A stretch of 64,000 nucleotides of DNA. It comes from a virus. The notes below the pieces were generated by a model, which made no database searches, was not told the DNA's origin, and saw only the letters and a list, made by a program, of their open reading frames with translations. The stretch lies in the IMG/VR virus record IMGVR_UViG_3300023174_000064, positions 32,001 through 96,000 of that record. One strand, given 5' to 3'. Positions 1,845-64,000 of the stretch are shown piece by piece. Position 1 is the stretch's first letter, and each line of letters begins with the position of its first letter. The position numbers were made by a program, and so were the translations under genes.

Positions 1845-2291
1845 TTATATAATTCCGATACTGTAAAGATATAAATTTAATCCTGGAAGTAATACTGAAC
1901 CGGTTGTTCCTTGTACTGAACTTACACCAATAACATCACCAGTAGATCCGTTAAACGATGCTACTCCTGTTACTGCTCCGGTAGATCCGTTGAAACTAGC
2001 CACGTAACTGTTAAAAGTAACAGCACCAGTAGATCCGTTAAAACTTTGAACACCTGTGTTTGTAAATGTAATACCTTTACTACCTGCAGACACACTTATT
2101 CCAGTGCTAGCGTATGCAGTTAATGTGCCTGTTAATCCGTTAAACGATGCCACACCAGTAACATCACCTGTTAATCCGTTAAACGAACTTACTGCTATAG
2201 GTATACTTGCAGAATCACTAATAACAGTGGTTGCTGTAATACCTACTGCAAGACCGGAAACTGCTACGAATGGTTGTATGGTATCTGGCAT
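1845..2291 (-). CDS. short fibre-repeat protein
   Basis: Six V(A/S)SFNG(L/S)TG.V-type repeats shared with the large fibres; SD AGGAG. Confidence 0.7.
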   Translation of the reverse strand: MPDTIQPFVAVSGLAVGITATTVISDSASIPIAVSSFNGLTGDVTGVASFNGLTGTLTAYASTGISVSAGSKGITFTNTGVQSFNGSTGAVTFNSYVASFNGSTGAVTGVASFNGSTGDVIGVSSVQGTTGSVLLPGLNLYLYSIGII

Positions 2292-2315
2292 TTTATCTCC
2301 TAGTCATTACCCGTT

Positions 2316-5300
2316 TTATTGAACACGCACAGTGGTTGTGAATACGGTGCTGTTGGCGGAAAGTGGTGTGGCACGAATCAACAAGTTTTTTGGAAAACCA
2401 CTCAAAATTGTACTATAAGACGAAACAGGGCCGGTTGCTCCTGTGCGAATCAAGCCGTATTGCGTGTTTACGGTATTGGTTCCGTCCTGCACCACCAACA
2501 TCTTCAACATTTCAGTTTTGTTCAACACGGTATCACGAGCAGAAATTGTGACCTCAAACGCAGGATAGCCCATTACTGGTGGTATTTGACTATTGTCGTA
2601 AACCGAATCAATCGTGGCAATAGTTTGATTGGCTGTGGTAGCCGTTGTGGTGGTTCGGTAAGTTTGAACAAACGAATAGGTGTCTGCAAACGATGGAGCC
2701 GATACTTGATTAAGGAAACTTCCGGTGGTGATTATTCCGTTAGGTGCCCTTAGTCTAACTGTTTGTGTGGTGTCATTAACACTAATGTATGTGCCGTTAT
2801 TGAGGAAATCGCTATCACCCTCAAAACCGTAATCTCCAATAGTTGTTAAATTTCCATTATTATTTATTGCTACTACTGTTCCGGTATACGGATACAAACC
2901 GTCTGTGTATTGAGTTACCGCACTTAAATTGGTGCTGTATATGTCTGTGGCAGTCAAGTTTCCAAATGTTGCACCACGTGTCACATACAGAGTGGATGCG
3001 GTGATTCCTGCGGTGAAACGGGTCAGAGACGAGAATATTCCGCCTGCTGAAGAGATACCGGCATTTGCTGACAGTAAACGGGTAAAGGTAGCCGTTACTC
3101 CTGTTAGCGATCCGTTGAGTGTTATGCCACCCGCAGCACTAAGACCAGCAGTAAAGTTTTGTTGAGCAGTAAATGTATTTGCTACACTGGTTGTTACTCC
3201 TGTAACTGCTCCTGTTAAACCATTAAAACTGGACACGTATGAGTTAAAGGTAACAGCACCAGTTGAACCGTTCCAACTTTGTACACCAGTATTTGTAAAA
3301 GTAATTCCATTACCACCTGCCGCAATACTTACTCCGGTAGACGCCAACAGACTGAGAGCTCCTGTGAGGCCATTAACAGAGTTTACACCAGAAATAGCAC
3401 CAGTGGCACCGTTGAATGTGGAAACACCTGTAACCGCACCGGTAAGGCCGTTTACAGAATTCACACCAGAAACAGCACCAGTAGCACCGTTGAATGTGGC
3501 AACACCTGTAACTGCACCAGTAGAACCGTTCCAACTTTGTACACCAGTATTTGTTATAGTAGGATTAGTTGTTCCGGTTATGGATATACCTGTACCAGCA
3601 TTAATAGCAGTCACTCCAGTAACTGCTCCTGTTAAACCATTAAAACTGGACACGTATGAGTTAAAGGTAACAGCACCAGTTGAACCGTTCCAACTTTGTA
3701 CACCAGTATTAGTGAATGTAATTCCTTTACCACCTGCCGCAATACTTACTCCGGTAGATGCCAACAGGCTGAGAGCTCCTGTAAGGCCGTTTACAGAATT
3801 CACACCAGAAACAGCTCCAGTAAGGCCGTTGAATGAATTAACTATATTAGAAGCGTAAATGTTTGCAAAAGTTACTCCACCTGTTACTGATAGGTTATTA
3901 ATAAAAATGCCATTTGTAATACCTCGAATACGACCACCATTTAATGATGATATTGTACCAGTATCATCAAATGTCCAAACAGCACCAGATACTCCGATTC
4001 CAACTACATCATTATCAACAGAAACAAACGAATTCAAATTATTACTAACTAGTTCAGCATAACTAAAAGCACCGGTTGGGGCTTTTAGATCTATACCATA
4101 ACCTGTTTCAAAAACATCACTTATTATTGCACCATTTGGTAGCAATACGCTTCCTGTGGCTCCAAGACTAAGTACAGAAGCTCCATTGATTAGCCTATCT
4201 ACATTTACATTTCCTGTTGCGCCATTAACTGAAGACACGCCAGTATTGATTAAAGTTATTTCTTTACCACCAGCAACCACACTGATTCCAGTACCACCAA
4301 AGAATGTTAATGCTCCGGTTAATCCGTTTGCAGAGTTTAAACCAGAGATTGTTCCGGTAGCACCATTGAAGGAATTAACCAAAGGAAGCGTGGTAACAGC
4401 AGAGTTGACCCACAATCCCTGTGTGCTGTCGTAACGCAGAATTTGATTGTTTGCAGGAGTTGTAACAGCAACATCACCCAAGTCATCCAAATTCAATACG
4501 GTTGATGCTCCACCACCGCCTGTGGTGTTTCGGAAGAAACCACCGGGAACAATACGGCAGTCACCAGTAGAAGACGCATTGGAACCGCCGCCACGCACAA
4601 TAAGCCATCCCAAGAACACACCGTTGTATCGTGTAATGTCTGCTTCCGCAAATGTTTCCAGTAGAATGTTGTTTGCGGCAACAGTATCTGTTGAGTAGGA
4701 CGCTGTGCCGTAGTAGATGTATAGCGCATTGTTTAGTCCCGGAATCTTGTAGACTCGCTGTATAGACCAGTTGTTGTTGCTGATGTTTCCAAGAGTTCCG
4801 CTGCCGTTATCGTAATTTCCAAAATTAACGGTAGTGCGGACAACCGGATCTGTTCTGTAAGTACCATCAGCATTTCTGTACAGGTAGAATAGTTGTTGCA
4901 CAGGCACAGAAGAACTGTCTGTGACAAGACTTGGATTGTTGACATCGACATCCATGTTTGCGCCCAAAGCAAACGCAGTACCCGTGGTGTGCTGTATTTG
5001 ACCTGTGGTTCCGTATCCACTCAGCACATAACCGTCTATTTTGAGTGCACCGAAGTAACGAATAAATGTTTCGTATTGTGCGCTTGAAGCGTAGGCTACG
5101 ATTGGGTGGTAGTGAACTCGGTTCACATAAGCCCGTGATTGGTGAACCGCATTACCAATCACCACGCTGTTCAGGTATTGGGTTTGGGTAAAATTGCTAG
5201 ACGACTGTTGTAGATTTCCTGATGAATCAATACGGAAGAAAGTAAAGTCGGATGATGTCATTCCTGCAAGGGTAACACCTGTCTTGGCAGTCCATGTTAC

Positions 5301-6602
5301 GGTTTGCAGAGAGGGTGCAGGATACCCTCCTGTGGCAGCGTTTACCGTGGCAATGATTCCTGCTCCTGCGGAAACATCCACTGCTGCTGTATTTCCTGCA
5401 TTGATTGTAAGGACACCACCGTACAGAAGTCCTGATTGAATTTCTTCAAGAATACGATCACCATTCACTCCCTTAATAAGATCAGCATCCAATCCTGAAC
5501 CTGCACCGTCATTTCCTGCGTGCCATGCGGTGTAACCCGCAATGGTTACTCGACCATTACCAAATGTGGCTCCTGACGCACTAATACCTGCGTTGAATGT
5601 ATTGAGTGCGGTGAATATATTGGCAACAGAAGTGGTTACGCCAGTGACAGCTCCTGTAAAACCGTTGAATGATGTTACGTAATCACCAACATTACCACCA
5701 GACACAGCAACATCAACCTGTTTGCCTTTTCTGGTAACAGTAATGTTGTCACCAACAAAGTTAATATCGTTAACCGACTTGATTACTCTGGCACGATCTT
5801 TATAGATGCCGACTGCACCACCACCAATCGAGCCTGTATTCAGCCACTGAAAATTCTGTGCTACTGTTTGTGCGTCCAGTTTGGTTTTTACCAGACTGGT
5901 AAGTTCTTGTTTAAATTTAGATCCATCAAAAGAAAGCTCACCTTCTTCCAGTACTAACGGATAGTTGGCAGAAATAATATTAGACTCACCGGGATCGCCT
6001 TTTGGTCCTTGAGGACCTTCAGGACCTTGTGGACCTATAGGACCCAGTAATCCTTGAGGACCAGGTTCTCCCTTGGCACCCGGAATACCTTTTGGACCTT
6101 GCGGACCAACAGGACCGATTTCACCTTCTGGGCCTTCTGGACCTTGAACGCCTTGTGGACCTTCAGGACCTACCTCTCCTTTAGGACCTCTGACACCAAT
6201 AGGACCGGGAACACCTTGTGGACCTATTTCACCTGGAACACCTTGAGGACCGATAGGGCCTTGAATGCCTTGTGGACCCATAGGACCTTCTGGGCCTTGT
6301 GGTCCAATAGGACCTTCTGGGCCTATGTCTCCTTGAACACCCTGTTCGCCTTTATCACCCGGCCAGCCAGTCTCTCCAGTATCACCCTTTTCACCTTTTA
6401 ATCCTTGTGGGCCTTGAGGACCGGGTTCGCCTTGAGGACCAGCCCATCCGTCTTCACCTGCGGGTCCTTGGGGGCCTGCTGGACCTTGAGGACCTCGTGG
6501 CCCAACAGGACCTCTCAGATCCTGTGTTGATTGTATTTCACTTTGCGGAGAAACCACAGGGGTTGGTTTATCCAAATTAAAGTATTGCTTAAACTTGTCC
6601 AT
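2316..6602 (-). CDS. collagen-like long fibre protein
   Basis: 59 uninterrupted Gly-X-Y triplets, WHAGNDGAGSGLDAD phage fibre motif, many V.S.NG.TGAV repeats, C-terminal ...LVVQDGTNT..TQYG domain. Confidence 0.85.
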   Translation of the reverse strand: MDKFKQYFNLDKPTPVVSPQSEIQSTQDLRGPVGPRGPQGPAGPQGPAGEDGWAGPQGEPGPQGPQGLKGEKGDTGETGWPGDKGEQGVQGDIGPEGPIGPQGPEGPMGPQGIQGPIGPQGVPGEIGPQGVPGPIGVRGPKGEVGPEGPQGVQGPEGPEGEIGPVGPQGPKGIPGAKGEPGPQGLLGPIGPQGPEGPQGPKGDPGESNIISANYPLVLEEGELSFDGSKFKQELTSLVKTKLDAQTVAQNFQWLNTGSIGGGAVGIYKDRARVIKSVNDINFVGDNITVTRKGKQVDVAVSGGNVGDYVTSFNGFTGAVTGVTTSVANIFTALNTFNAGISASGATFGNGRVTIAGYTAWHAGNDGAGSGLDADLIKGVNGDRILEEIQSGLLYGGVLTINAGNTAAVDVSAGAGIIATVNAATGGYPAPSLQTVTWTAKTGVTLAGMTSSDFTFFRIDSSGNLQQSSSNFTQTQYLNSVVIGNAVHQSRAYVNRVHYHPIVAYASSAQYETFIRYFGALKIDGYVLSGYGTTGQIQHTTGTAFALGANMDVDVNNPSLVTDSSSVPVQQLFYLYRNADGTYRTDPVVRTTVNFGNYDNGSGTLGNISNNNWSIQRVYKIPGLNNALYIYYGTASYSTDTVAANNILLETFAEADITRYNGVFLGWLIVRGGGSNASSTGDCRIVPGGFFRNTTGGGGASTVLNLDDLGDVAVTTPANNQILRYDSTQGLWVNSAVTTLPLVNSFNGATGTISGLNSANGLTGALTFFGGTGISVVAGGKEITLINTGVSSVNGATGNVNVDRLINGASVLSLGATGSVLLPNGAIISDVFETGYGIDLKAPTGAFSYAELVSNNLNSFVSVDNDVVGIGVSGAVWTFDDTGTISSLNGGRIRGITNGIFINNLSVTGGVTFANIYASNIVNSFNGLTGAVSGVNSVNGLTGALSLLASTGVSIAAGGKGITFTNTGVQSWNGSTGAVTFNSYVSSFNGLTGAVTGVTAINAGTGISITGTTNPTITNTGVQSWNGSTGAVTGVATFNGATGAVSGVNSVNGLTGAVTGVSTFNGATGAISGVNSVNGLTGALSLLASTGVSIAAGGNGITFTNTGVQSWNGSTGAVTFNSYVSSFNGLTGAVTGVTTSVANTFTAQQNFTAGLSAAGGITLNGSLTGVTATFTRLLSANAGISSAGGIFSSLTRFTAGITASTLYVTRGATFGNLTATDIYSTNLSAVTQYTDGLYPYTGTVVAINNNGNLTTIGDYGFEGDSDFLNNGTYISVNDTTQTVRLRAPNGIITTGSFLNQVSAPSFADTYSFVQTYRTTTTATTANQTIATIDSVYDNSQIPPVMGYPAFEVTISARDTVLNKTEMLKMLVVQDGTNTVNTQYGLIRTGATGPVSSYSTILSGFPKNLLIRATPLSANSTVFTTTVRVQ
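3202..3821. repeat. internal direct repeat (~200 bp, offset 417 bp)
   Basis: 3202-~3404 and 3619-~3821 are near-identical; first ~90 bp identical. Confidence 0.85.
5982..6512 (-). repeat. collagen Gly-X-Y tract
   Basis: GPV GPR GPQ ... GPK GDP GES, 59 triplets counted by hand. Confidence 0.95.
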
Positions 6603-6655: not shown

Positions 6656-8365
6656 TCATAAACTTAAAGTATCAACAAAAACTAAACCACCCAAACCAGC
6701 ACCAACTATTGGTCCCGTAGGAATATAAACTTTAACATCTTCTGTTGTAATAAACGGACTGGATATTAAATTATACACAAAAGGAGCAGTATTAGTAGGG
6801 TTGGTTTGTGATATTAAAGTATTTCCTGCGTATACAGACATAGTTTGGTTCCATGAAGGATAATCAAGGGTATCACCAATCAAAACACGAACAGATTCTA
6901 CTAAAACTCTTTGACCATACGAAGAGAATGTGTGTGTTGCTCCAGATAAACCTGGAGCATTTATAAATCCATTTGCATTTTTTGTATTTTTATTTCTATC
7001 TAAACCGCCCATTCCTCCAACATAACGACCACCAGTCTGATATTCTCCACGTAAATAAATATTTTCTATGCCTTTACAATTTTGAAATATTACAGGAGGC
7101 CATTGATAATAACTTTGAGATCCAGTGACCCATTGAATATTTGCACTGGGAGCCGAAGCCAAATTCTTACAAATCATTCCGCAATTATTATAATTTCCTA
7201 ATGCGTTTTGAGCTTTAATTTTAATTTTAGCTTGTTGATTTGGTGTTTCTCCCCATTGACCTCCATCCAATTCTACAATATAATTATCTCCTCGTAAATC
7301 AAAAGGATATACATCAGATTTTGATTCCCCACCTGCTATTCCACAGTTAACAAACTTTACGTAAGCTCCACCAGTTAATTCTATAACTTTACTGGTTCCA
7401 GCAAGGTTTCCTTTAGGTTCGTATTCCCATTTAGTATTAGTAACTAAATATTGGGCAACTGCACCAACAGAATCATTAGATATTTTAAGGAAAGTTCCTG
7501 GCATAATTACTGTACCGGAATCTACGTGTAAATACTCATAACCTTTAATATCAAAAGCAGCATAAGTAACTCCGTACCAAGAACAATCCACGAATCGATT
7601 GACTAAAGCTTGCGTATTTCTAGACCAAACAACAGTGTTAGCACCATTAAAATAAGATCCGGAAACAACATTAGTGTCTTCATTTATATCACAAGTATAC
7701 TTAAGAATAGTATTAAAACCATAAGTACTTATTCTATTAATGTATAATCGTCTTCCACCACCACCACCATTTAAAGTTATACAATTTCTTTGTGTGTTGG
7801 TATTACCACTTAAATCTTGAAATGCCAAGTCATGAAATTCTAAAGTGTCGTAAGGACCTGCAAAAAATACTGTGCTATAATTAGATTTTGTGGTGGTTAT
7901 AACAGAAACATCAGAACCATCACCAGCAAATTTCACTCCAAGAGCAGACGCTAAATTTACTGAGCAAGTAATTCCAGTAATTCCTGTGGTATTACATGTA
8001 TTTAATGCTGTTGGTAAATTTAATTCTCGATTTAATAAATATTTACCACGCGGAATATAAATAGTTCCCGTTCTTGCTGGAACAGATGGAGACGCAGAAC
8101 ATATACCAGTAGGAACTGTAAATCTTAAAAAATCATATGCGTTTTGAAATGCTAAACTGTCATCAGTAACACCATCACCAACAGCACCAAAATCTCTAAC
8201 ATTGCAAAAATCACGTAATTTATTTTCTACTGTTCTATTTACTCCATTTGTGGAAAAAGTATTACCAAATCCGTAAGTATAACCAATACTACTAATTATT
8301 TGATTGGTTTTATCAAACCAAGTTTCAAACGTATCTGTTCCGGTTAATCCTGTTATTCTTGGCAT
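6656..8365 (-). CDS. beta-helix tailspike / depolymerase-like protein
   Basis: RTVENKLRDFCNVRDFGAVGDGVTDDSLAFQNA...IYIPRGKY, pectate_lyase_3-type entry to a right-handed beta-helix; N-terminal DTF..W..KTN module. Confidence 0.85.
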   Translation of the reverse strand: MPRITGLTGTDTFETWFDKTNQIISSIGYTYGFGNTFSTNGVNRTVENKLRDFCNVRDFGAVGDGVTDDSLAFQNAYDFLRFTVPTGICSASPSVPARTGTIYIPRGKYLLNRELNLPTALNTCNTTGITGITCSVNLASALGVKFAGDGSDVSVITTTKSNYSTVFFAGPYDTLEFHDLAFQDLSGNTNTQRNCITLNGGGGGRRLYINRISTYGFNTILKYTCDINEDTNVVSGSYFNGANTVVWSRNTQALVNRFVDCSWYGVTYAAFDIKGYEYLHVDSGTVIMPGTFLKISNDSVGAVAQYLVTNTKWEYEPKGNLAGTSKVIELTGGAYVKFVNCGIAGGESKSDVYPFDLRGDNYIVELDGGQWGETPNQQAKIKIKAQNALGNYNNCGMICKNLASAPSANIQWVTGSQSYYQWPPVIFQNCKGIENIYLRGEYQTGGRYVGGMGGLDRNKNTKNANGFINAPGLSGATHTFSSYGQRVLVESVRVLIGDTLDYPSWNQTMSVYAGNTLISQTNPTNTAPFVYNLISSPFITTEDVKVYIPTGPIVGAGLGGLVFVDTLSL

Positions 8366-8385: not shown

Positions 8386-9912
8386 TTAATCAATTCTATA
8401 ATTGTTTATTTTATTTGCGGAAGCAGCAAGTGAGTATCCAGAAATAGGACTTGCTCCATAAAAAATACTAGAACTGTAGAGAATTCCTGCTGTTGTTCCT
8501 CCAGTATTCACATTATCAATCAATGAAAAATTATTCATTGTGGCAGAAAAATTATCAGCAGACCACAACCAACCAAATGTTTTACCAGGAGCGTCTGTAA
8601 GTTGTTCTACCATATTACCTGTAAATTGGTAGAAAGTAGGAGCAGTATCAAGAGCAGGCGATCTGTGATCGTGTGTAGTCAAATTTCCAAAAAACATACA
8701 CGGACCTATTATTTTATTATTTGTGGCTGTAAAAAATAAAGGATTAGCAGCGCCAGTATAACCACGAGACGCACCAACAAAAACTTGAAGAACTCCAGCA
8801 GATTTTGGAACAGAATTTATAACTTGATTTCCGGATACAGTATAAGAACGAGTTCTTTGAATTTTCGCTCCATTATAAAAATTAATACAAGCAAAACCAC
8901 CTACGTCTGCCGATAATCCGCTTTGAGCAAATGGAGTTAAACCAGTACTGGTTGGCTCATAGTAAAAATTATTATTGTATATCTGACCTACTACAAATTG
9001 AGCGTTTACTTCTGCTGGTTGAGCTATTGGTAGAATATTTCTATAAAATGTATTATTTGAAATTATACTTCGATCATTTTGAATTTTAATGGATCGACCT
9101 TTACAGTTTCTGAAATGATTATTAGTTATTGTTGCAGCACTTTCATTAAATGTAATGCCGTTAATATCATTCGGAAGATAACCAAATACAGATAAACAAT
9201 CACAATCTGAATTACTATTTGATTGTGTCCAACCAGAAGAAACGTTTTCAAAATAACAACCAGAAACGTTTACATTTTTAGGATATGCGTTTCCTGAGCG
9301 TTGTATAGCAACTCCCACTGTTCCAGCAGAGTTTTGAGTTCCTGTTCCGTTTGCACGTGTATGATTTATTACCTGAGAATTTGTTAGATTTACGTATTTA
9401 CTACCACTAATAAATAGACCACCACCCCCAAGTCCTACCCCAAGATCGCCTCCTTGATATGAATTTAGGAACGCACAACGATCAATTTCTATTGTTCCCG
9501 TCATTCCTAGTGAATCTTCTATAGCAAGGCATGCAAGAGCTTTATTATTGCCGTCAAATTTAATTCCTTGCATTTTAACATCATACCCTTGATTTGAAAT
9601 AAACCACATATGTTGTGCTGTGGTTCCGCAAACTATTCGAGCGTCTTCGCCAATAATATGCAAAGTACGATTCATAGTTCTTTCTATTTGGCGATTAAAG
9701 CGCGGACCAGTTCCTGTTAACAGATAATCCCCTTTAGGAAAATACAAAACTGAATTAGTAATACCATTTGCGGCATTAAGAGCAGCACTGATACCTAATG
9801 TATCGTCTATTGTTCCGTTTCCTACTGCGCCGTAATCACGGACAGAAACTAATCTTGGATTTGTAAAGGTTATTCTTGTGTCTGTTCCGGTTAATTTTAT
9901 TGATGGTTCCAT
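8386..9912 (-). CDS. beta-helix tailspike / depolymerase-like protein
   Basis: VSVRDYGAVGNGTIDDT..I.AAL...LYFPKGDY followed by Asn-ladder repeats (ITNNHF, ISNNTF, VSGNQV). Confidence 0.85.
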   Translation of the reverse strand: MEPSIKLTGTDTRITFTNPRLVSVRDYGAVGNGTIDDTLGISAALNAANGITNSVLYFPKGDYLLTGTGPRFNRQIERTMNRTLHIIGEDARIVCGTTAQHMWFISNQGYDVKMQGIKFDGNNKALACLAIEDSLGMTGTIEIDRCAFLNSYQGGDLGVGLGGGGLFISGSKYVNLTNSQVINHTRANGTGTQNSAGTVGVAIQRSGNAYPKNVNVSGCYFENVSSGWTQSNSNSDCDCLSVFGYLPNDINGITFNESAATITNNHFRNCKGRSIKIQNDRSIISNNTFYRNILPIAQPAEVNAQFVVGQIYNNNFYYEPTSTGLTPFAQSGLSADVGGFACINFYNGAKIQRTRSYTVSGNQVINSVPKSAGVLQVFVGASRGYTGAANPLFFTATNNKIIGPCMFFGNLTTHDHRSPALDTAPTFYQFTGNMVEQLTDAPGKTFGWLWSADNFSATMNNFSLIDNVNTGGTTAGILYSSSIFYGASPISGYSLAASANKINNYRID

Positions 9913-9943: not shown

Positions 9944-12900
9944 TTATGGTGGGCATGAAGATATTGTGATGTTGGGATTAGTTATTCCTCGTAAATATTT
10001 AAAATCATTTATTGTAATTTTACCAAAAGAAATTCCAGGAATTAATTTTATATCGTAATCCCAAGACGGGAACACGTAGGTCGGAACATTAAATCTGGTA
10101 GTACACCCAGTAGTTGATGCAAGAGTTGTGGTATTTCTTAAATTATAACTTGCGTAATTTTGTATTACCGGTATTTCTGTTATAACAGTATATGATGGAG
10201 GAGTATCTGTGGTAGAAGTATCCCAAATGCCACAAGTCAATCCTCCTAGCGCATAAGTTATTCCTGTTGTATTATTTATAGCTTGAATAATTTGATTATT
10301 AAATGTGGTTCTCCAAATATATTTGAAGTTGCGTAGTTTAGCTCCTGTAGTAACGTAAAGATCTCTGTATGAGATTGCTGTTGTTGATGAGCTACTACTT
10401 TGAGAAACTTTTCCGCCTAATAGAGTATTCAAGCTTGCAACATGAGAATTTAAAGTAATTCCGTGTGCTGTGCGTTCAGCTGCAGTAAGTCCACCATCAC
10501 CACCATTCCACAGATAAAATATTTCAGCTCCCAATAAGAATGTGTGTGTTATATTCTCATAATAATATCTGCGATCTAAATTATATTTTGAATCTGTATA
10601 ACCCAAACCGTTTATCCAAGGTTGTAGTGGTGTGGATGGAGAACTGCGTTTGCAACTTCTAGTTTCTTGTTGGTCAACAACAAATGCAGTCCAAGCAGAT
10701 GACGGTAATTGTTGTCCACTATCATCTAATACCAATCGGGTTGGATCTGAATCTGATATTGACCAAGACGTTAATATTCCACCCAATTCTCCGTACAGAT
10801 AAGGAGAAGCTGCTGTTCCAAATATGGCACTAAACGGTTGTTGATGTCCATTTAAATCTGGTGGTGGATTATTTGTAGTAATTACACAATCGTAATTACT
10901 GCCTCGTAGACCTGGTATTTTTGTCTTTGTATAATTCCATAATGCTTGATTTAAACCAGCAACTCCAAGAGAACGTAAAGCATTATTCCAAGCTAAATAT
11001 GCAGTATTTCCACTACCGGCTCCCTGTAATACTGCATCTAAATTCACACCTTGTAATTGAGTACTTAATGCTGTAATTCCGTGTTTAGATTGAGTAAATC
11101 TGGCATCTGATGTGATTGCTCTTAGTACTTCTGCATCTGTTGTTTTAATACTATTTTTTAGACCAGGTATACTCCAATTAGAGAATGAACCAACAGCATC
11201 TTCATTATCAAATGCCCAATAATCAAATGTTACTCCATTACTTACTAGTCCGTCTATCCACGGATTCCACTCTGCTTGTACTTTAGTTATTGCGTCATCA
11301 AACCAAGGACTGTAAGTTAATCCCAGACCAGCTGTATCAAAAGTAGAACCCAAGAAAGCTTTTTGGAAGTGGTAACGATAAGTTCCAAGTACACGTTTAC
11401 CTGGTGCAATAGTCTTAAACTTGTCTGCAATAGCCGTAAACCCGGTAATTGTTTGTTTTGCAAGCAGAGATTCATTCACAGAGAATGGTGCACCCGGATC
11501 GATTTGAGTAATACCATTTACCCACACTATAGGTATTATATGAGACAATGATGTACTTCCAATCCAAGGTTCCCAATACGCAACATATACTGCAGGTGTT
11601 GTAGCTACTGCAATTGCGCTTAGTGTTGTGTTTAATTTTAAATTGTTTTCATCATAGTAAGAACCACCTGATGTTCCTAACATCACATTAATTGCGTAAT
11701 GGCGACTTGGTGGTATTGCTCCTACCCCAGGAACAGCCGTATAAGCGTATTTAAACGAATTATTTACTGTTAATTCTCGTTCTAGCCGAATTGGTTGATT
11801 GCCGGTCAACGTCATTAATACATCAACACCACTATAAGTTACACCAACACTGTTTGTATTATATGGAATTGGTTGTGACCAAGCAACATTCCAAGTTTTA
11901 TTGTTTGATCCAGATATTGGATATAAAGTAAGGCCAGTGTCTGTTCCTTCTTTTGGTAATGGGAACGTGTTTGCAGCACTGGCTCCGGTGTAACCAACGT
12001 GGAATCGATAATATACTCTGCTGGCCGGTCCTGTTGCGTACGGACCTGTTGCAGACCATGAAGCACCAGGATAAATTGGATTGTACGCACTGATACCAAC
12101 AACGTCTTCAATTTGAATGGTTGCAGATCCTTCAGAATACGACCAAGTAATACCTCGTGTGCATTTTCCTATTTGATATTGATACGGCTCAAACTGATAA
12201 GTGAGTCCTTCTGGTGCAATATATGTTGGTACTAAACTACTGCCGTAAGACAGATAATTTGCAGTATCACCACCTCTTGCTGTAGAATTTGGTGGACCTC
12301 CCCATCCGTACAAGTAACCATCACTTGGACCAACCCAACCTGGTACGGCTTCTGCCCATCCATATTGTCGAGCAGTTAATCCTCTAGTATTATAAGTTGG
12401 GAGCAGATCAATAAATGCGTAACCACCAGTACTATTAAAAGTGACACCAGACCATGGGCAGGTTTGAGGCACCGCATAATCTTTCCTCTCACCTAGCTGC
12501 ATTTTATTGTGACCTTTTGCTCTCACTGTTTCGGTTACAAAATATTCCGCAGTGGTTGTGTTTGAACCAGAACCTTCGCTTATTGCTCTAGGTTCTCCTG
12601 CTTCTAATAGTAGTACGGCATCGCCCAGATAAGCAGAAATGTGACCACTATCCGAATTTGTTTTTTCATCTCGACCATTAACACCTTTACCCCAAATACC
12701 AAATATTAACGGTTTATTAAAATTATCGTTCGTTTGTGGAGTTCCGTCTGAATTCCAACTTGTATTAGTTAAAAAATTAGAGTGAAAACGTGGTATAACA
12801 TGTTCGGACTTCCACACAAAACAATTTTCTCCAGCAAAATAACCCCAAGGCGGAAGTACTTTACTGTTTATTTGGCCTCGGTCCACATATTTTTTCATTT

Positions 12901-16075: not shown

Positions 16076-16327
16076 TTAAATAGGATTTGGTGAAATATCA
16101 CTTTCAATCTCTTCATCTTTTGGTTTGGTTGGTTGAACTGGTGGTACTAATGGTGGACCGAAATAATATTCTGGCTGTTGTGTTTGTAATAATGGAAAAT
16201 TTATTTGAGCAGATATAATTAAAGTTTTGTTTATATTTTTAATGTACATAAAGTACACATCATTTGCTAAAAATTGTTTCAGCAAAACTTTAATATTTTT
16301 TTCAGATTGTTTGACCTTCAGCTTCAT
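16076..16327 (-). CDS. hypothetical protein
   Basis: 83 aa ORF packed between structural genes, SD AGGA. Confidence 0.5.
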   Translation of the reverse strand: MKLKVKQSEKNIKVLLKQFLANDVYFMYIKNINKTLIISAQINFPLLQTQQPEYYFGPPLVPPVQPTKPKDEEIESDISPNPI

Positions 16328-20053: not shown

Positions 20054-20104
20054 TAAATTTCTTTTATTAAACTAGTAATTTTTTAAATTTACTCATAACT
20101 ATAA

Positions 20105-22394: not shown

Positions 22395-22406
22395 ATTTTT
22401 CCTTAA

Positions 22407-23063: not shown

Positions 23064-23076
23064 TTAAATTGATCCT

Positions 23077-26509: not shown

Positions 26510-26511
26510 AA

Positions 26512-50943: not shown

Positions 50944-52074
50944 TTAGCTAACCAAAACTTCTCCGGTAGCAGAATTAGTTACTCGTATTGTTATTGTCGA
51001 TACTGGATACACTAAATCAACAACCACATCTAATATTAGATTGCCCGCAGCTCGAACAGCTTGAGTATTATTTGATTCATCACATATTAAACTATAACTA
51101 GCAATACCATTATTTGCTAAAATACCATTCATTATAGGAGTAGCAGAATTTACTACTTGTAGACGTGTGATTGCATCGTTTATCTCAAACAAATACTGTT
51201 TTAGTGTTGTTGTTAATTGTTTTTTGATGTATAAAGCCAACATCATAGAATTTATTATACTTTGTGATGTACCAGATACCGGATATGAGGTTATATTACT
51301 TAAGAAGAAAGTTCCTTGTCCTGGTATTGAGTTTATTGGATTTACTCCACCAGCTGTAAAATAAGAGATATCACTATCTGAGAATTTTTGTGTCAGATAA
51401 AGAACATTTAAAATTCTACCATTCGTATAACCTGCAGGACTTATCCAAATATTATTACTTTCTGCTGTTCTGGCAAAACAACCAGCAACATCCGGACTCA
51501 TTCCACCATCATACACTGTAGCAACACCGGAATTAAGGTAAGTAAATTTTTTACGACCAGCAACGTAAGTGACGTATTTACTTAAAGTTTTTTGACCAAA
51601 ATCTGCCGTAAATCCGTCATAATTACTACTCATTGATAGAGTAGCAATATCTCTGTAATTACCAACAATAGCCATGCAGTCGGTTCTTGTTGTTGCTGCA
51701 TTTATTGCAGCACTCGAAGAAAAAGTATTACCACCATCAAAAATTACATCCAATTCTACTATATTTTTATTATGGAGAGGGCTGTTTGTTAATAAGTTCA
51801 CGTTGTAAAACGATCCAGTGGATCCGGTTCCACCAACAAAACAAGAACCACCGTATTGCAAATAATTCCAAACACCAAACCATTCTCCTTGCCAATCTCC
51901 AGTTGGTCCACTGGTGGCAAATGTAGAATTACTTAATCTGCCTAGCCAGTCATTTAAAGAAGAAACTGTCATTAAACCAGTTTCTTTTTCCGAAATTCCA
52001 TCAGAACCAGTTATACCAAATTTTGGTACAAGTCCTTTAAAAGAAACCATTCCAGCTTTTAGGTCTTGTGGCAT
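50944..52074 (-). CDS. gp18: tail sheath protein, short and divergent
   Basis: NYLQYG, R.DCMA, DVAG..ART, W.SPAG...G.I, VNP....PGQG, LFE.ND..TR, ICDESNNT; between gp17 and gp19. Confidence 0.85.
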   Translation of the reverse strand: MPQDLKAGMVSFKGLVPKFGITGSDGISEKETGLMTVSSLNDWLGRLSNSTFATSGPTGDWQGEWFGVWNYLQYGGSCFVGGTGSTGSFYNVNLLTNSPLHNKNIVELDVIFDGGNTFSSSAAINAATTRTDCMAIVGNYRDIATLSMSSNYDGFTADFGQKTLSKYVTYVAGRKKFTYLNSGVATVYDGGMSPDVAGCFARTAESNNIWISPAGYTNGRILNVLYLTQKFSDSDISYFTAGGVNPINSIPGQGTFFLSNITSYPVSGTSQSIINSMMLALYIKKQLTTTLKQYLFEINDAITRLQVVNSATPIMNGILANNGIASYSLICDESNNTQAVRAAGNLILDVVVDLVYPVSTITIRVTNSATGEVLVS

Positions 52075-57190: not shown

Positions 57191-60100
57191 TTATCCGGTC
57201 AAACCTACTGGTGTCAAAGTATAATAACCAGTGAATATTGCTGTTTGTCTTGTTTGTGGTAAAAGATACAAAATAGCATCATTTCCGTTAATATTACAAC
57301 CAAGGTCCCAAGTAAGACGGCTAGGATGTGCTGTAAGATTTATTGCTACTACGTAAGTTTGTCTATCAGTTCCGTCACTAGAAACTCCATCGTGAACAAT
57401 AAGATCTTTTCTACCAATATAGTATCCAGTTGGAATTGGTGCGCCCACAGGCTCCACCCCAATTCCACTTGGCCAAACACCTTGAGAGGTATTTTGATCA
57501 ATGATGTTTACTGTTGAAGTAACATCTATCATATTATATTGATTTTTATTAAATCTGGCTACTTCGGCACTTAAACCTGTTTTAGACACAATTTTAAATG
57601 CATTCATTATTACTCTATTGTTTTCGGTAATACCCATTACTCGACCAAAACTAAAAGTGCCTCCAGAAACAACAGATCCTGTAAATGTAGCACCGGATGC
57701 ACTTAAACCGGCAGCAAAAATTTGTTGAGCAGTAAATGTGTTTGTTACATTTGTTGCTGCACCGCTTGTTGATATGGTAACTGCGCCAGTTAAGCCGTTA
57801 ACAGAAGACACCAGATTTGTAAATGACTGTCCGTTTAGACTCATCGTTCCACTTAACGTGGCACCGGATGCACTTAAACCATTTGGAAGTTGTAATTGCC
57901 CGTAAATAGTGGCAGATTGTTGTAGTGTGGTACCTAATACCGCAGTATTAGAACCTAAACCAATAGCATTAGTACCAATTACTATTTCGTTAATTTGGCT
58001 ATTTGCAGAAGCACGAGTATTATAACCTATGAAAACACCACCTGTTACTGATGTTAATGAAGTTCCTGATCCGAAGTACCTACCAGCATCATATCCTATA
58101 CCAGTATTATTACTGCCTGTTATATTTGATCTAAGTGCCTGCGTACCAATTGCCACGTTACTGCTGCCTGATGTGTTTGATGTTAGAGTATTGAAACCAA
58201 CAGCGGTATTGTCTTGACCACCAACATTACTGCTCAAAGCACCACTACCAAAAGCAGAATTTTCAGTACCAGAAATGTTTGCTGTCAGTGCATTAAAACC
58301 AACACCAGTATTATCAGCACCGTTAGTGTTGACCAATAAAGATCCAGAACCAACAGCAACATTATGAGTTCCTGTGGTGTTTGCGTTTAAAGCCCCAGAA
58401 CCAAGAGCCGCATTTGAAGTAAGATTTCCAGCACCAATACCAACACTAGCACTATTAACAGTAATATCTTTAGTGAAAGCTACACCAGTAATGCCACTGG
58501 GAACCGACAGTAAACCACGTAGTGTGGTGGATGTTGTATCGGTATTACCTATAACTGTAGTGTTTGATCCGTTACCAATAGCATCATAACCTATTACTAT
58601 TTCATTTGTTTGATCATTTGCCCCAGGAGAACAGTCTGCACCTATAAAAATAGAAGCAGTACAGCCAGTATGGTCATCACCATCTGGTAAAAATGCTCCA
58701 GCAGCATATCCTACAGAAACATAACTGTAACCGTCCAGATAATATCCGGAGAAAGCTCCTATACTGGTATTCCATTTTTTATTGTTATTGGCTCCAACGC
58801 TAGTGCCTATGAAAACGTTGTCTTCTTGGCCCAATCCGGTGTTTAAACCAATTCCAATTGATTGTAACGGTCTCGATATTAAACCAGAACCACCGCTTTG
58901 AAATCCAATACCAACACAAGATTCTGGATATAATGCATCTGTGCCTGCTCTACAGCCTATAAAAGTACAATTCTGTGCCCCTGCGGCTTGGCGGCCTTGA
59001 CCGTATTGCGGGCCGTTTCCTCCCGCGTTATATCCTATAAAAACATTTTCTTCGCGAATAGCAGTACATCCGTTGAGTACCTCGTGACCTATTAATACGT
59101 TTCTAAATGGTTGGCCACCAGTAACATATTGAGAAGAAAATAATGGATCTAATATGTTGTCACCAATAACAATAGTATTCGATACGCCGTTTCCTGCAGT
59201 ACTACCATTATCCGCAAAAATACGAGATCCAATACCAATATTATTCCCGTAAGTATACCTGTAAAACTGAGTCGTTCCTGAGACAACCTCTCTGGTTACA
59301 CCAAATCGTGCAATTGTTGTATACTGAGCAGTAAGCCCTACATGTTGGGCACCTAGTATTGGAAGATCAGGTTGTGTTGATGGTATACCAGCAATATTCG
59401 GATAAAACTGGTGATATAATTTTATATTTCCCGCATTTGTTATTCCACCATAACCTATACTACTGATAAGTGTTTCACCTCTAATTACTGTGGAATATAT
59501 AAACCATCCACATACTCCAAGTACAGCCTGGTAACCAGAATACGTAATTCCTTTTTCTGTTGTATAATTACCAAAAATTTGTAATTTTGTTGTTAAAGTT
59601 GTACCAATCACCGCAGTATTGGAACCTAAACCTACCGCATCAGCACCAATTACAATTTCATTGTTTGATAATGAACCAGTATTTACTCGGGTATTATAAC
59701 CTAATAGTACGGATTTGCTTGTGGTTGAGGAATTTTTTCCTGCCTCTGTACCAACAGCAGTATTGTAATTACCGCTTACCATATTGGTCAATGCTTGATA
59801 ACCAACACCCAGATTTCCTGTTGCTGTATTAGCTGCCAGCGCAGCAGAACCCACTGCAGTATTGTAATTACCTGATGAGTTTGTTGATAAGCTGTTATAA
59901 CCTACTGCAGTATTATCATTTCCGTTATTGTTTTGTAGTAAAGAGGAAGCACCAATTCCAGTGTTGTCTTCACCATTTCCATTACTGACTAATGCATTAG
60001 AACCTAATGCAGTATTGAAATTACCTGATGTGTTGTTAAATAAGCTGTTATAACCTACTGCAGTATTATCGTTTCCGTCTGTATTACTGCTTAATACATC

Positions 60101-61045
60101 GACGCCAACAGCTGTGGATTGATTTGGATTTTTACCACGACCAACAGTAATAGTATTAACACGTATATCTGCACCAAACGTGGCACCAGCCGCACTTATA
60201 CCAGCATTAAATGTTTGTACTGGAGTAAACACATTCGCCACTGATGTAGTAACACCAGTAACAGCACCAGTTAATCCGTTAAATGTAGCCACACCAGTTA
60301 AATTACCGGTTAATCCGTTTAAACTACTCACAACATTAGTTACTGTTGGTATACTTGCAGTTAAAGATCCAGTAATGGTAACATTTCCGTTAAAAACAGA
60401 AGCAGCATTAACTGTTAAATTACCGTTTAATGTAGCATTTCCATTTAATGTGGCACCAGCCGCACTTATACCAGCATTAAATGTTTGTACTGGAGTAAAC
60501 ACATTCGCCACTGATGTAGTAACACCAGTAACAGCACCAGTTAATCCGTTGAATGAAGCCACACCACTAACACTATTTGGATTAAATCCTGGAGCAATTA
60601 AATTTCCAGTTATTACGACATTACCATTAAATGTGGCACCACTAGCAGAAATACCTGCTGTGTATTCTTGTAGCGTGGTAAAAATCTGTGTGGTGTCTAA
60701 TCTTGCAATATTTTCTATTGCTCCAAACGATCCGTTTACCGACAAAACGCCAGCATTTGTTATTATGGGATTAGTAGTACCAGTGATGGTTATACCAGAA
60801 TTACCGGATCTAATTCCTGTGACACCAGAAACAGCACCAGTTAAACCATTAAAAGAACTTACGTAATTACTAAAAGTAACAACTCCAGTTAATCCATTAA
60901 ATGCCGCAACATAATCTCCACTAATACCAGTTGAGAGAGACCCACCACATATTCCAGCATTAACAGCTGCAATTAAACTGTTTGTTGTATTGAATAGTGT
61001 TTGAAAAGTATCGTTGCCAGTTAATGAAGTTATTGGTGTTGACAT
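57191..61045 (-). CDS. long tail fibre / adhesin-like protein
   Basis: V.SFNGLTGAV repeats, YadA-head-like NTA.G..AL..N..G repeats, NEIVIG..A.G.GSNT.V.G junction motif three times, C-terminal LIVHDG domain. Confidence 0.85.
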   Translation of the reverse strand: MSTPITSLTGNDTFQTLFNTTNSLIAAVNAGICGGSLSTGISGDYVAAFNGLTGVVTFSNYVSSFNGLTGAVSGVTGIRSGNSGITITGTTNPIITNAGVLSVNGSFGAIENIARLDTTQIFTTLQEYTAGISASGATFNGNVVITGNLIAPGFNPNSVSGVASFNGLTGAVTGVTTSVANVFTPVQTFNAGISAAGATLNGNATLNGNLTVNAASVFNGNVTITGSLTASIPTVTNVVSSLNGLTGNLTGVATFNGLTGAVTGVTTSVANVFTPVQTFNAGISAAGATFGADIRVNTITVGRGKNPNQSTAVGVDVLSSNTDGNDNTAVGYNSLFNNTSGNFNTALGSNALVSNGNGEDNTGIGASSLLQNNNGNDNTAVGYNSLSTNSSGNYNTAVGSAALAANTATGNLGVGYQALTNMVSGNYNTAVGTEAGKNSSTTSKSVLLGYNTRVNTGSLSNNEIVIGADAVGLGSNTAVIGTTLTTKLQIFGNYTTEKGITYSGYQAVLGVCGWFIYSTVIRGETLISSIGYGGITNAGNIKLYHQFYPNIAGIPSTQPDLPILGAQHVGLTAQYTTIARFGVTREVVSGTTQFYRYTYGNNIGIGSRIFADNGSTAGNGVSNTIVIGDNILDPLFSSQYVTGGQPFRNVLIGHEVLNGCTAIREENVFIGYNAGGNGPQYGQGRQAAGAQNCTFIGCRAGTDALYPESCVGIGFQSGGSGLISRPLQSIGIGLNTGLGQEDNVFIGTSVGANNNKKWNTSIGAFSGYYLDGYSYVSVGYAAGAFLPDGDDHTGCTASIFIGADCSPGANDQTNEIVIGYDAIGNGSNTTVIGNTDTTSTTLRGLLSVPSGITGVAFTKDITVNSASVGIGAGNLTSNAALGSGALNANTTGTHNVAVGSGSLLVNTNGADNTGVGFNALTANISGTENSAFGSGALSSNVGGQDNTAVGFNTLTSNTSGSSNVAIGTQALRSNITGSNNTGIGYDAGRYFGSGTSLTSVTGGVFIGYNTRASANSQINEIVIGTNAIGLGSNTAVLGTTLQQSATIYGQLQLPNGLSASGATLSGTMSLNGQSFTNLVSSVNGLTGAVTISTSGAATNVTNTFTAQQIFAAGLSASGATFTGSVVSGGTFSFGRVMGITENNRVIMNAFKIVSKTGLSAEVARFNKNQYNMIDVTSTVNIIDQNTSQGVWPSGIGVEPVGAPIPTGYYIGRKDLIVHDGVSSDGTDRQTYVVAINLTAHPSRLTWDLGCNINGNDAILYLLPQTRQTAIFTGYYTLTPVGLTG
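60180..60550. repeat. perfect 101-bp direct repeat (offset 270 bp)
   Basis: 60180-60280 identical to 60450-60550. Confidence 0.9.
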
Positions 61046-61063: not shown

Positions 61064-61753
61064 TTAAATAATACTTCTGATTGTTAATCCGTTTCGGAAA
61101 CCAATATAACCAGTCGTTCCCGTTCTGACTGCAGTAAATATAGGAACCATGTATTCTCCAGTTCCTGCAGTTCTACCAAAACCACTGATTTGTAATTTTA
61201 ATCTGTCTGCACCACAAGGTCCGTTTACAAAATTCATATTATGGGAATCTTGTAGTGTTCTGTCTTGTGTTGTGCCTGCTGTATCGTTTGTTGTGCAACT
61301 AATAGTTACTGGTTTGATCACCATACCGTAATCTCCAGTACTTCCTGTTGCTCCAGTAAATCCACTCATAATAGTTCTTGCAGTATTATTATAAACCCAA
61401 ACACCAAGACCGCCATTAGTGTTATTGTGTTTGATGAGATACCATCCAGCACTTCCTGTTGCAGTAATAGAAGTAGAACCACTAGAAGAAATCAGAGAAG
61501 AAGTATAAGGCGTACATCCATCCCAAGGAACGGTTCCAGCTGTCCATCCCTGACTTTGTAAACCACTATTTAATGTATTTTGTACATAAAATATTTCTTG
61601 AATTTCATTTAATTCAGATGCTTGTAGTGGATATCCTGCTTTAAATGCAACAGCATAATAATTTTTTGAAGCGTTTATTTGAGATTCTACTCTGCTTCTA
61701 AAAGGATTTTGGTTGAACGGAAATCCGCCTGTAAATGGTGTTGGTATTGGCAT
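61064..61753 (-). CDS. miniature DUF4815/VrlC-like virion protein
   Basis: YY.V.FK.G.PLQA.EL.E.Q and GADRLK motifs in only 229 aa. Confidence 0.7.
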   Translation of the reverse strand: MPIPTPFTGGFPFNQNPFRSRVESQINASKNYYAVAFKAGYPLQASELNEIQEIFYVQNTLNSGLQSQGWTAGTVPWDGCTPYTSSLISSSGSTSITATGSAGWYLIKHNNTNGGLGVWVYNNTARTIMSGFTGATGSTGDYGMVIKPVTISCTTNDTAGTTQDRTLQDSHNMNFVNGPCGADRLKLQISGFGRTAGTGEYMVPIFTAVRTGTTGYIGFRNGLTIRSII

Positions 61754-62875: not shown

Positions 62876-62879
62876 TTAA

Positions 62880-64000
62880 TTATGTGGATTGTGTTATATT
62901 TGTATTAAATGATGCAGTCAATAAAAATTCATCCTTTATTACGGTAGAGTCTGGATATCGTGGATATGCTGTCATGTCTATAGATTTATTTTTTGCTAAC
63001 ACGTTTTCGCTTATTACAGCATATCCATCAGAATAATTTACATACCCTAAATAACCAAAACCACCAATTAAAGATGAATTTGCATCCACAGAAACAAGTT
63101 TTCCTTCTGTTGCTGTTCCGGTAGAATCAAATGTAATAGGTGTATCTGCCAAATAAATTGTTTGACTGCTATACGATAATCCTGTTGTTTTTATTGCATT
63201 TCCGTATGCTGCTGTGCTTCCAGGTCTTAATTGATTTTTAAAGTTTACTAATTTTTGGCCATCGGAACCACATACTCCTAAAACAAAATTTAAAGAATTT
63301 ATTCCTATACTTTTTATATTTGTAAAATTTGCGTCCGCCACAGTTTTCATATCTGCCACTCTAATATTATTATTAAATATTCTAGGACTATTATAATAAT
63401 TTTGTAATATACCAGCCAAACCAGTCACCGATGTTGAATTAGTTGTTACTACATCTAACGTAATGTTAGCTGTTATTGGTTGTGCCTGAACATATTCAGG
63501 TAAAGTTCCTATTATTGATTTTGCCTTTAAGAATGCTATAGAATTTTTAACTTGTAAAGATCCTGCAGTAATTCCTGTGTTTGCAAAAGAAACAAATATT
63601 CTACCATATGCTGGAGGTGTTGCCGTATCTCCTCCCCATATATTTAATTGTTCTTTTTGGGTTATAGACGAAGGTAGTAAATTTGAAGATAACAAAAAGC
63701 TGTAATAATCTTCTTGTGTTACTGCTCTTTGATTAGCTGCAAACGATTTGGGAGCAGAATAACGAATTGCGTCTAGATTGGGAGAATCTGTTCCACCAGA
63801 AGTAGAAGTAGAACTTTTTATTGTTATACTTGCATTTTTTATAGAAGTAATACTGTTTGCTGCAGTTCCAGAAGAAACCAAATAAGAAACCTGAACAATG
63901 TCGGATTCGTTTATTGTCTTTCCTTCAGAAGTTGAATAACTACTCGCATTTGTTTTTCCAAATACTAGTTGAAATCCATCTACAATTCTTTCAACATAGA
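62880..64000 (-). CDS. gp6: baseplate wedge protein gp6, 3' part (start beyond right edge)
   Basis: Frame open to the window end (YVER...FG...V.YLVSSG..AN), IRYSAP..FAANQRAVT..DY, WGG....PP.YGRIFVS, G.VNY..G. Confidence 0.9.
   Translation of the reverse strand, partial: YVERIVDGFQLVFGKTNASSYSTSEGKTINESDIVQVSYLVSSGTAANSITSIKNASITIKSSTSTSGGTDSPNLDAIRYSAPKSFAANQRAVTQEDYYSFLLSSNLLPSSITQKEQLNIWGGDTATPPAYGRIFVSFANTGITAGSLQVKNSIAFLKAKSIIGTLPEYVQAQPITANITLDVVTTNSTSVTGLAGILQNYYNSPRIFNNNIRVADMKTVADANFTNIKSIGINSLNFVLGVCGSDGQKLVNFKNQLRPGSTAAYGNAIKTTGLSYSSQTIYLADTPITFDSTGTATEGKLVSVDANSSLIGGFGYLGYVNYSDGYAVISENVLAKNKSIDMTAYPRYPDSTVIKDEFLLTASFNTNITQST

Follow-up and report, generated by a model that had tools for sequence, protein, structure and literature searches.

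Gene order of the window

The DNA analysed here (the window) is a stretch of 64,000 nucleotides comprising bases 32001-96000 of a 146,037-bp virus record (IMG/VR record IMGVR_UViG_3300023174_000064) that is about 80% complete. This work concerns a gene that encodes a 414-aa glycosyltransferase, composed of a GT-A domain of the GT2 type and tetratricopeptide repeats (TPR), and that lies between a cluster of sugar genes (the sugar island) and a set of fibre genes whose products are rich in the tripeptide Gly-x-Thr (G-x-T). All the genes of the window are on the minus strand and are arranged as in a T4-like myovirus. The genes of the baseplate and of a 1284-aa structural protein are followed by gp13, gp14, gp15, gp16, gp17 and a short gp18, then by gp19, gp20, gp21, gp22, gp23, a gp3-like tube protein, UvsY, UvsW, gp47 and gp46, and then by RNase H, gp45, gp44, gp62 and regA. 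The 15-kb sugar island comes next and leads to the GT2 gene, a 135-aa protein, an 83-aa open reading frame (ORF), a 2041-aa protein, two tailspike-like proteins, a 1428-aa collagen-like fibre and a group of small repeat proteins. The features on which the analysis centres are the following:

16762-18006, minus strand: GT-A (GT2) + TPR glycosyltransferase, 414 aa, candidate priming protein O-glycosyltransferase
18025-18031, minus strand: late-promoter-like ATAAATA box, whose start is 25 nt ahead of the GT2-TPR start codon
16340-16747, minus strand: 135-aa protein, predicted immunoglobulin (Ig)-like fibre-anchoring adaptor (BppU-N / T5 collar-like), directly downstream of the GT2-TPR gene
16076-16327, minus strand: 83-aa ORF between the adaptor and the 2041-aa protein, no family match
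9944-16069, minus strand: 2041-aa tail/fibre protein, with N-terminal FN3-like repeats and a TIG domain
8386-9912, minus strand: tailspike-like protein with a pectate-lyase-like beta-helix in its N-terminal part (PHROG tailspike, Pfam PF12708)
6656-8365, minus strand: second tailspike-like protein, likewise with a pectate-lyase-like beta-helix in its N-terminal part (PHROG tailspike, Pfam PF12708)
2316-6602, minus strand: 1428-aa fibre (Pfam Collagen 7.6e-25; PHROG tail fibre families)
1845-2291, minus strand: 148-aa protein, almost wholly an NG-x-TG repeat, with 8 G-x-T
57191-61045, minus strand: 1284-aa structural protein, a paralogue of the 1428-aa fibre
61064-61753, minus strand: 229-aa protein with a short (G-x-T)3 run

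Identity between the capsid protein and gp23 of cyanomyoviruses does not exceed 57%, and psbA was not found in the record. Megablast of the window against phage records returned only short gp23/gp17 matches (∼80%, cyanophages) and none for the island. Near-identical DNA is present in several freshwater lake metagenomes, as short contig fragments from four freshwater runs. The virus is taken to be an uncultured freshwater phage, whose host may not be a cyanobacterium.

A GT-A + TPR enzyme related to protein glycosyltransferases

The N-terminal part of the 414-aa enzyme matches Pfam GT2 (residues 8-95; 7e-11) and its residues 180-299 match TPR proteins (MamA, CTPR); precomputed TPR Pfam matches are also recorded for its relatives. 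The best matches among PDB sequences were ThuS (7msk, 4.6e-10), GmaR (22ao, 7.9e-9) and SunS (1e-7), all of which glycosylate peptides or proteins. The top NCBIfam model was that of the SunS family (TIGR04195), with 47.3 bits against a cutoff of 350, which makes the enzyme a relative of that family and not a member. In the structural model (25 homologues; predicted local distance difference test score, pLDDT, 85) a GT-A/alpha-beta domain (residues 1-165) is followed by 11 helices (176-388). A Foldseek search with this model gave ThuS/SunS structures as the six best matches (E 1e-15 to 2e-13); the next was TarS (2e-7), eight orders of magnitude behind, and then came TPR domains, including that of OGT, and CTPR. 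The DxD motif, DADD at residues 89-92, is invariant in the 25 homologues and aligns with the IDAD of ThuS and GmaR. Judged by its sequence and modelled fold, the 414-aa protein is a GT-A+TPR enzyme whose closest characterised relatives are protein or peptide glycosyltransferases. The family is large: 5,397 homologues were found at E ≤1e-5 (more than 100 of them at 62% identity or above), with 4,407 clusters at E < 1e-30. Most remote representatives lie on contigs too short for their gene neighbourhood to be read. One remote member (L038:2996-4087) lies within a bacterial flagellar operon, between fliO and fliN/fliM, a position compatible with a role in glycosylating flagellin.

Downstream of the ATAAATA box that heads the enzyme gene comes a GGAG ribosome site. 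Copies of this box also stand before gp23, gp22, gp18, gp13, the gp3-like gene and both tailspike genes, as well as within the sugar island, and before none of the replication genes; 21 copies lie on the gene strand versus 7 on the other. The strict 8-mer TATAAATA was not above chance in the window, and the 7-mer ATAAATA upstream of genes was used instead. As far as a match to a consensus can tell, these boxes suggest that the enzyme would be expressed late, alongside the virion proteins.

The 135-aa protein encoded next to the enzyme is predicted to fold as an Ig-like sandwich (pLDDT 91). Its top PDB matches are chains of ∼140 aa from the tail tip, collar or baseplate of T5 and DT57C, and its matches in BFVD are the BppU N-terminal domain, which anchors fibres, and the N-termini of minor tail proteins (TM 0.6-0.84). 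Because of this likeness to T5/DT57C chains and to BppU, the protein is, on its modelled fold, identified as a fibre adaptor. It follows the GT2-TPR gene in every relative whose contig extends that far (42-89% identity; 17 aligned) and contains a near-invariant loop, G-[VL]-T-Y-G-Y-T-G. The 83-aa ORF beyond it is found in some relatives, at 46-69% identity. A first-pass annotation of this DNA, made from its letters, had called 16762-18006 a GT2-TPR enzyme, had placed a sugar island next to it and had described the 135-aa protein as an adaptor; the Pfam GT2 and TPR matches with ThuS, SunS and GmaR as nearest relatives, the 15 kb of glycosyltransferase and methyltransferase genes, and the Ig-like fold with its BppU-N/T5-type matches bear out all of these assignments.

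Gly-x-Thr is over-represented in tail and fibre proteins

Motif counts were compared with those expected from composition-preserving shuffles. The 2041-aa protein contains 44 G-x-T (the first-pass annotation had put the number at ∼40-45), versus 21.3 in shuffles (z 5.3), and 35 G-[VILFAYS]-T, versus 9.9 (z 7.5). When all residue pairs at gaps 0, 1 and 2 were scanned in 14 tail proteins, with no prior choice, G-x-T ranked first of the 252 gap-1 pairs (179 versus 103.5; ratio 1.73, z 8.6); T-G was the top adjacent pair and G-x-x-G the top gap-2 pair. The enrichment over shuffled sequences that had been postulated is thus present, and all those of the listed pentapeptides that were checked were found where they had been reported. 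Across the 146,037-bp record, 34 G+T-rich structural proteins hold 246 G-x-T (161.6 expected), and the remaining 131 proteins hold 100 (105.2 expected). By the shuffle test there was no excess in capsid, portal, terminase or replication proteins (gp23 has 3 versus 3.1, and gp19, also without an excess, 2 versus 1.3), in line with the scarcity originally noted in portal, terminase and replication proteins. The two tailspike-like proteins contain 10 G-x-T versus 5.0 and 12 versus 6.5, and the 1428-aa fibre, in which an N-terminal collagen triple-helix tract is followed by many NG-x-TGAV-type repeats, contains 31 G-hydrophobic-T versus 11.5.

Part of this excess is shared by descent. BLASTP finds paralogy among the 1428-, 1284-, 148- and 229-aa proteins, which extends to 26% of the 2041-aa protein; its basis is a short repeat in tandem, 11-13 residues long (..f-N-G-x-T-G-A-V-x-G-V..), that carries nearly all the sites of those proteins; in the 2041-aa protein, 29 of the 44 G-x-T lie outside the paralogous segments. 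The proteins had first been described as unrelated and their sites as lying mostly outside repeats, which fails for the five proteins joined by NG-x-TGAV paralogy and holds in that the excess outlives masking: once every residue under any non-self match had been removed (8,801 aa left), 126 G-x-T remained versus 79.4 expected (1.59, z 5.8), and the ratio for G-hydrophobic-T was 2.12 (z 6.8). Collagen-type (Gxx)n runs were ruled out as the source of the excess in the window, since only 5 of the 179 sites are in such runs.

The excess is specific to Thr. In the masked set, Thr alone is raised at the third position of G-x-? (1.57; Val 0.83, Ile 1.08, Ser 0.94), and in the ?-x-T column Gly alone stands out, with Asn slightly up. 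Ser and Cys had been put forward as alternative acceptors, a suggestion that the counts do not sustain: neither G-x-S (0.84-0.93) nor G-x-C (0.95) is enriched in the tail proteins or in the paralogue-masked set.

The residues around the sites (Ser at -3, hydrophobic at -2, Asn at -1, Gly or Ala at +1, Val at +3) form a profile that stems from the tandem N-G-x-T-G-A-V unit, and the flanks alternate between hydrophobic and polar residues. This alternation, the large share of sites that come from one short repeat family and its paralogues, and the high conservation of the motif Thr described below would all be accounted for if G-x-T were a structural signature of the fibre folds of this lineage (the NG-x-TGAV repeat, the starts of FN3-type domains, a Gly turn followed by a beta-strand), with the enzyme restricted in its target (to the adaptor loop, say, or to a single fibre tract) or acting on something outside the virion. 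We consider this explanation doubtful, if the most serious of the rivals, since the excess remains after paralogy masking and since Val and Ile, which have Thr's preference for beta-strands, do not rise with it.

Three other T4-like phages, none with a GT2-TPR homologue at E < 1e-5, served as controls. The G-x-T ratio was 1.09 in T4 (18 tail proteins), 0.96 in S-PM2 (17 tail proteins, ∼15,000 residues) and 1.22 in P-SSM2, where G-hydrophobic-T reached 1.57, mostly in the 5195-aa gp7. From these ratios the excess is not general to T4-like tails. The fibres of T4 and S-PM2 therefore speak against a purely structural origin of the motif, and gp7 of P-SSM2 speaks for it; of these phages, all without the enzyme, the first two lack the excess and the third has a milder one.

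Some further proteins of the phage deserve mention. A 308-aa protein (481-1407, minus strand; 30% Gly) with collagen-like runs is depleted in G-x-T (4 versus 8.7), so the Gly-rich fibre proteins of this phage do not all follow the trend. Outside the window, at 107330-111358 of the record (minus strand), a 1342-aa Cys-rich structural protein with no BLAST paralogue in the genome contains 27 G-x-T versus 13.4, with short G-C-T triplet runs near residues 170-195 and at its C-terminal end. The tail sheath gene (50944-52074, minus strand) encodes only 376 aa, versus 659 aa in T4 and 743 aa in S-PM2.

The enzyme and the gene order are conserved in relatives while the island changes

The enzyme is carried at 76-86% identity by 21 IMG/VR contigs, which share the order variable sugar island, enzyme, adaptor and G-x-T-rich fibres as far as the contigs reach. 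The turnover of the island is extensive: only 11 of 228 upstream ORFs of at least 180 aa reach 40% identity or more to any protein of the window. Another relative (L032:1-10008), with an enzyme 63% identical, has the same layout. Its island encodes NeuB (nonulosonic acid synthase), a DegT aminotransferase, a TPP enzyme and a sulfotransferase-like protein, a completely different sugar chemistry in the same position. In a further T4-like relative (L036:1-4371), the GT-A+TPR gene comes immediately after gp44, gp62 and regA, the sugar island being absent, and is itself followed by a collagen-like gene of a charged, not a G-x-T, type. This arrangement marks the enzyme as a core gene and the island as an accessory. 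The fibres of the relatives vary too. On the fibre side, 15 ORFs without BLAST similarity to window proteins have a G-x-T ratio of 1.87 (z 6.4) and a G-x-S ratio of 0.94, and the ratio for G-x-T in island-side ORFs is 0.82; true (G-x-T)n collagen-like tracts are present in the fibres of three relatives (L007, L010 and L014). That the excess recurs in non-homologous fibres is a further argument against its being a property of particular folds.

Linkage of the enzyme family to G-x-T proteins in jumbo phages and bacteria

The association extends beyond this clade. The Acidobacteria jumbo phage Tunturi_5 encodes an enzyme homologue (37% identity) 4 kb from a 1469-aa fibre with 79 G-x-T versus 30.5, in GPT/GAT runs. 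Three huge uncultured phages were also examined, and in one the homologue lies 6 kb from a 1937-aa protein that has 55 G-x-T versus 26.4. Among bacteria, 80 loci (L040-L119) with homologues 38-48% identical over both domains were searched for ORFs within 10 kb having at least 10 G-x-T and z ≥4. Such an ORF was present in 22 of the 80 loci, in 18 of these within 2 kb of the enzyme gene, and 24 of the 27 qualifying ORFs encode (G-x-T)n collagen-like proteins. With any other residue in the place of Thr, the same search returned at most 4 ORFs in 2 loci; the internal controls are thus clustering beside the enzyme gene and residue specificity, not a background rate from random DNA. The loci span Actinomycetota, Burkholderiales, Chlamydiota, Verrucomicrobiota, Acidobacteriota, Bacteroidota and others. 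Carriers of homologues include Mycobacterium/Mycolicibacterium, Solirubrobacterales, Burkholderiales, Parachlamydiaceae/Waddliaceae, Verrucomicrobiota and Pyrinomonadaceae; one locus (L054) encodes a 1729-aa BclA-like protein with 290 G-x-T. A tie between the enzyme family and G-x-T proteins in so many phyla is difficult to attribute to the fibre folds of one phage lineage.

A pairing of this kind has been described in Clostridioides difficile, where SgtA, a GT-A protein with four TPRs, is encoded immediately upstream of bclA3 (PMC7157674). SgtA places beta-O-GlcNAc on Thr of the GPT collagen-like repeats of BclA3, and also accepts Ser in vitro (PMC7157674). Pairs of such enzymes with BclA-like (G-x-T)n proteins appear to be unstudied outside clostridia.

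A sugar island lacking predicted membrane proteins

The island and its surroundings contain the following features:

18024-18959, minus strand: GalE-like nucleoside diphosphate (NDP)-sugar epimerase (Pfam Epimerase 8.5e-56; NCBIfam galE 5e-42, under its cutoff)
18959-20053, minus strand: uridine diphosphate (UDP)-galactopyranose mutase Glf (Pfam GLF 1.3e-77)
20105-31845, minus strand: low-GC sugar island with glycosyltransferases, methyltransferases and a nucleotidyltransferase
32686-33246, minus strand: second Methyltransf_24 (TylF-like) methyltransferase, between gp62 and gp44 (Pfam 2.2e-21)

To judge by their family matches, the GalE-like protein and Glf together would supply UDP-galactofuranose. 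The island encodes seven glycosyltransferase-like proteins (GT32-like, GT92/GT2_4, two GT47-like, Nucleotid_trans, GT2 and GT10-like), methyltransferases of the Methyltransf_24, FkbM and weakly FkbM-like types, and an RfaE-domain-II-like nucleotidyltransferase; five ORFs, the weakly FkbM-like one included, have no Pfam match. Its G+C content (20000-32000) is 26-31%, versus 33-45% in the flanking structural and replication genes, which is compatible with frequent horizontal replacement. No membrane-spanning segment was found in the island proteins (no 19-residue window with a Kyte-Doolittle value above 1.29), and no Pfam match in the island corresponds to a flippase, polymerase, ligase, initiating transferase or GtrA/GtrB.

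Glycosyltransferase clusters of aquatic T4-like phages are routinely read as modifying the host surface or DNA. Under the first of these readings, the island would remodel a host surface polysaccharide through lipid-linked intermediates of the host, the virion would not be involved, and the GT-A+TPR gene would be a chance neighbour. This is the conventional interpretation of such clusters in cyanophages (PMC12801897); O-antigen transferases often lack membrane helices, and O-antigen loci are, like this island, low in G+C and hypervariable. Even so, we find it rather improbable here. The initiating transferase, flippase, polymerase, ligase and membrane-helix proteins are missing from the island, late-promoter-like boxes stand within it and before the enzyme, and it abuts the conserved enzyme and fibre module in all 21 relatives; moreover, the NeuB and DegT of the L032 island are typical of protein glycans of the flagellin or pilin type.

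Hypermodification of the phage DNA by the glycosyltransferases (glucosylation or arabinosylation of hydroxymethyl-cytosine, as in T4) is highly improbable. T4-like phages are the classic case of it, and a passage of PMC12619734 cites virus glycosyltransferases that can build glycans on DNA. Nevertheless, no gene of the ThyA/dCMP-hydroxymethylase family (PF00303) is present in the 146-kb record, an absence that at ∼80% completeness is unproven; the relatives of the key enzyme act on proteins; and the expression signals are of the late, not the early or middle, type.

A proposed system for glycosylation of tail fibres

We regard it as somewhat probable that with these genes the phage O-glycosylates its own tail fibres. 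The enzyme would be made late in infection, at the same time as the fibres and their adaptor. The TPR arm of the enzyme would grip an extended acceptor chain and its DxD-bearing GT-A domain would add a first sugar to the hydroxyl of Thr in Gly-x-Thr. The surest acceptors would be the tandem NG-x-TG repeats of the fibres of this phage and the (G-x-T)n collagen-like tracts of its relatives. The island would extend the same glycan by supplying activated sugars, UDP-galactofuranose probably among them, together with elongating transferases and O-methyltransferases. Since the relatives swap the whole island, each would wear a different glycan.

Several observations weigh against fibre glycosylation. 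The collagen tract of the phage's own 1428-aa fibre is not of the G-x-T type and holds only 2 of its 38 sites. In isolated sites, x is hydrophobic and the next residue hydrophobic or Gly, much as at the start of a beta-strand. When the 2041-aa protein was compared with an orthologue 51% identical to it, 25 of 28 motif Thr were kept versus 53 of 123 other Thr (89% versus 43%; P = 6e-6), and motif Gly was no better conserved than other Gly in orthologues of this protein; a structural role accounts for the conservation of the motif Thr and for the strand-start appearance at least as well as glycosylation does. In P-SSM2 a milder excess is present although the enzyme is missing. The agreement among the close relatives amounts to one evolutionary event, since all of them fall in a single clade. 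Farther away, the huge phages L028 and L029 (20 kb on each side) and PaBG (8 kb) have a homologue and no G-x-T-rich gene in its flanks. SgtA takes Ser in vitro, whereas G-x-S is unenriched here. Finally, a lack of membrane helices is compatible with a cell-surface product, as helix-free cytoplasmic glycosyltransferases also build lipid-linked glycans.

The first-pass annotation had gone further and made G-x-T/S/C an acceptor sequon across the tail surface, primed by the GT2-TPR enzyme and extended and methylated by the island into a glycan coat on the tail apparatus. In such a wider reading, Gly-(hydrophobic)-Thr would be a general sequon on tail, baseplate, sheath and fibre proteins, with a methylated, galactofuranose-containing coat over the whole tail, and isolated G-x-T sites would be modified in globular tail, sheath and baseplate proteins. 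It seems unlikely to us and is a much weaker claim than fibre glycosylation, because the sites resemble strand starts, the conservation of Thr suits a structural role and P-SSM2 shows an excess without the enzyme. Were it true, the composition of the coat would be swapped between strains via the island, a phage counterpart of O-antigen serotype diversity.

Whatever its target, a large and widespread clade keeps an enzyme of the protein glycosyltransferase type at the head of its fibre genes. If fibre glycosylation is correct, abundant lake phages would bind their receptors with glycoprotein fibres whose glycans differ from strain to strain, with a bearing on host range, adsorption, stability and escape from recognition by hosts or grazers, and cytoplasmic protein glycosylation would gain, in G-x-T, an acceptor motif that is short and portable. 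The bacterial pairing is of separate interest, since it would widen the SgtA-BclA3 association far beyond clostridial spores (to Actinomycetota, Burkholderiales, Chlamydiota, Verrucomicrobiota, Acidobacteriota and others).

Comparison with known glycosylation systems

Protein glycosylation by GT-A+TPR enzymes is already known, as is virion glycosylation in mycobacteriophages; to our knowledge, the latter modification has been shown experimentally only in actinobacteriophages. A soluble enzyme that, ahead of assembly, modifies a long and repetitive surface fibre at dozens of short-motif sites is known from the cytoplasmic hyperglycosylation of beta-helical adhesins by HMW1C and by the AIDA-I/TibA heptosyltransferases, which differ from the present case in enzyme family, in acceptor residue (Asn, Ser) and in being bacterial.

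The passages of PMC12619734 and PMC12801897 that cite Freeman et al. 2023 state that transferases of mycobacteriophages, in some accompanied by methyltransferases, decorate the phages' own structural proteins, the glycans being on the C-terminal tails of capsid and tail-tube subunits. In the phage studied here, capsid and tube proteins show no motif excess, the enzyme is of another family, the proposed acceptor is a tripeptide dispersed over the fibres, and the system is one predicted from sequence.

SunS and ThuS (PDB 7msn, 7msp, 7msk) are the best full-length matches in both sequence and fold, with a GT-A domain, a helical/TPR part and a DxD motif. They differ in their setting and acceptor: no glycocin precursor, exporter or thiol-disulfide gene lies near the phage enzyme, and G-x-Cys is unenriched in the tail proteins. 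GmaR (PDB 22ao), the O-GlcNAc transferase of Listeria flagellin, is the second-best sequence match to the GT-A core and has as its targets Ser/Thr in the exposed region of a filament protein; here the proposed targets are phage fibres, and there is no counterpart to the anti-repressor role of GmaR.

A literature search returned nothing relevant on glycosylated tail fibres and nothing linking SunS with tetratricopeptide. Several elements appear to be undescribed in the searchable literature: a widespread clade of freshwater T4-like phages carrying such an enzyme, a dispersed, Thr-specific tripeptide excess, a hypervariable island free of membrane-spanning proteins attached to a conserved enzyme, and the wide spread of enzyme-(G-x-T)n pairs among bacteria.

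SgtA-BclA3 was compared through its published description and not through the SgtA sequence. It differs from the system described here in that the carrier here is a phage, the sites belong mostly to an 11-13-residue NG-x-TGAV repeat or are isolated, instead of forming collagen triplets, and a 15-kb hypervariable island is attached. The two are alike in having a GT-A domain followed by TPRs and, if the proposed reading of our case is right, in a Gly-x-Thr acceptor, a surface fibre as substrate, other enzymes for the later sugars and the position of the enzyme gene beside that of its substrate, an arrangement repeated in the 22 of 80 bacterial loci where a homologue lies near a BclA-like (G-x-T)n gene.

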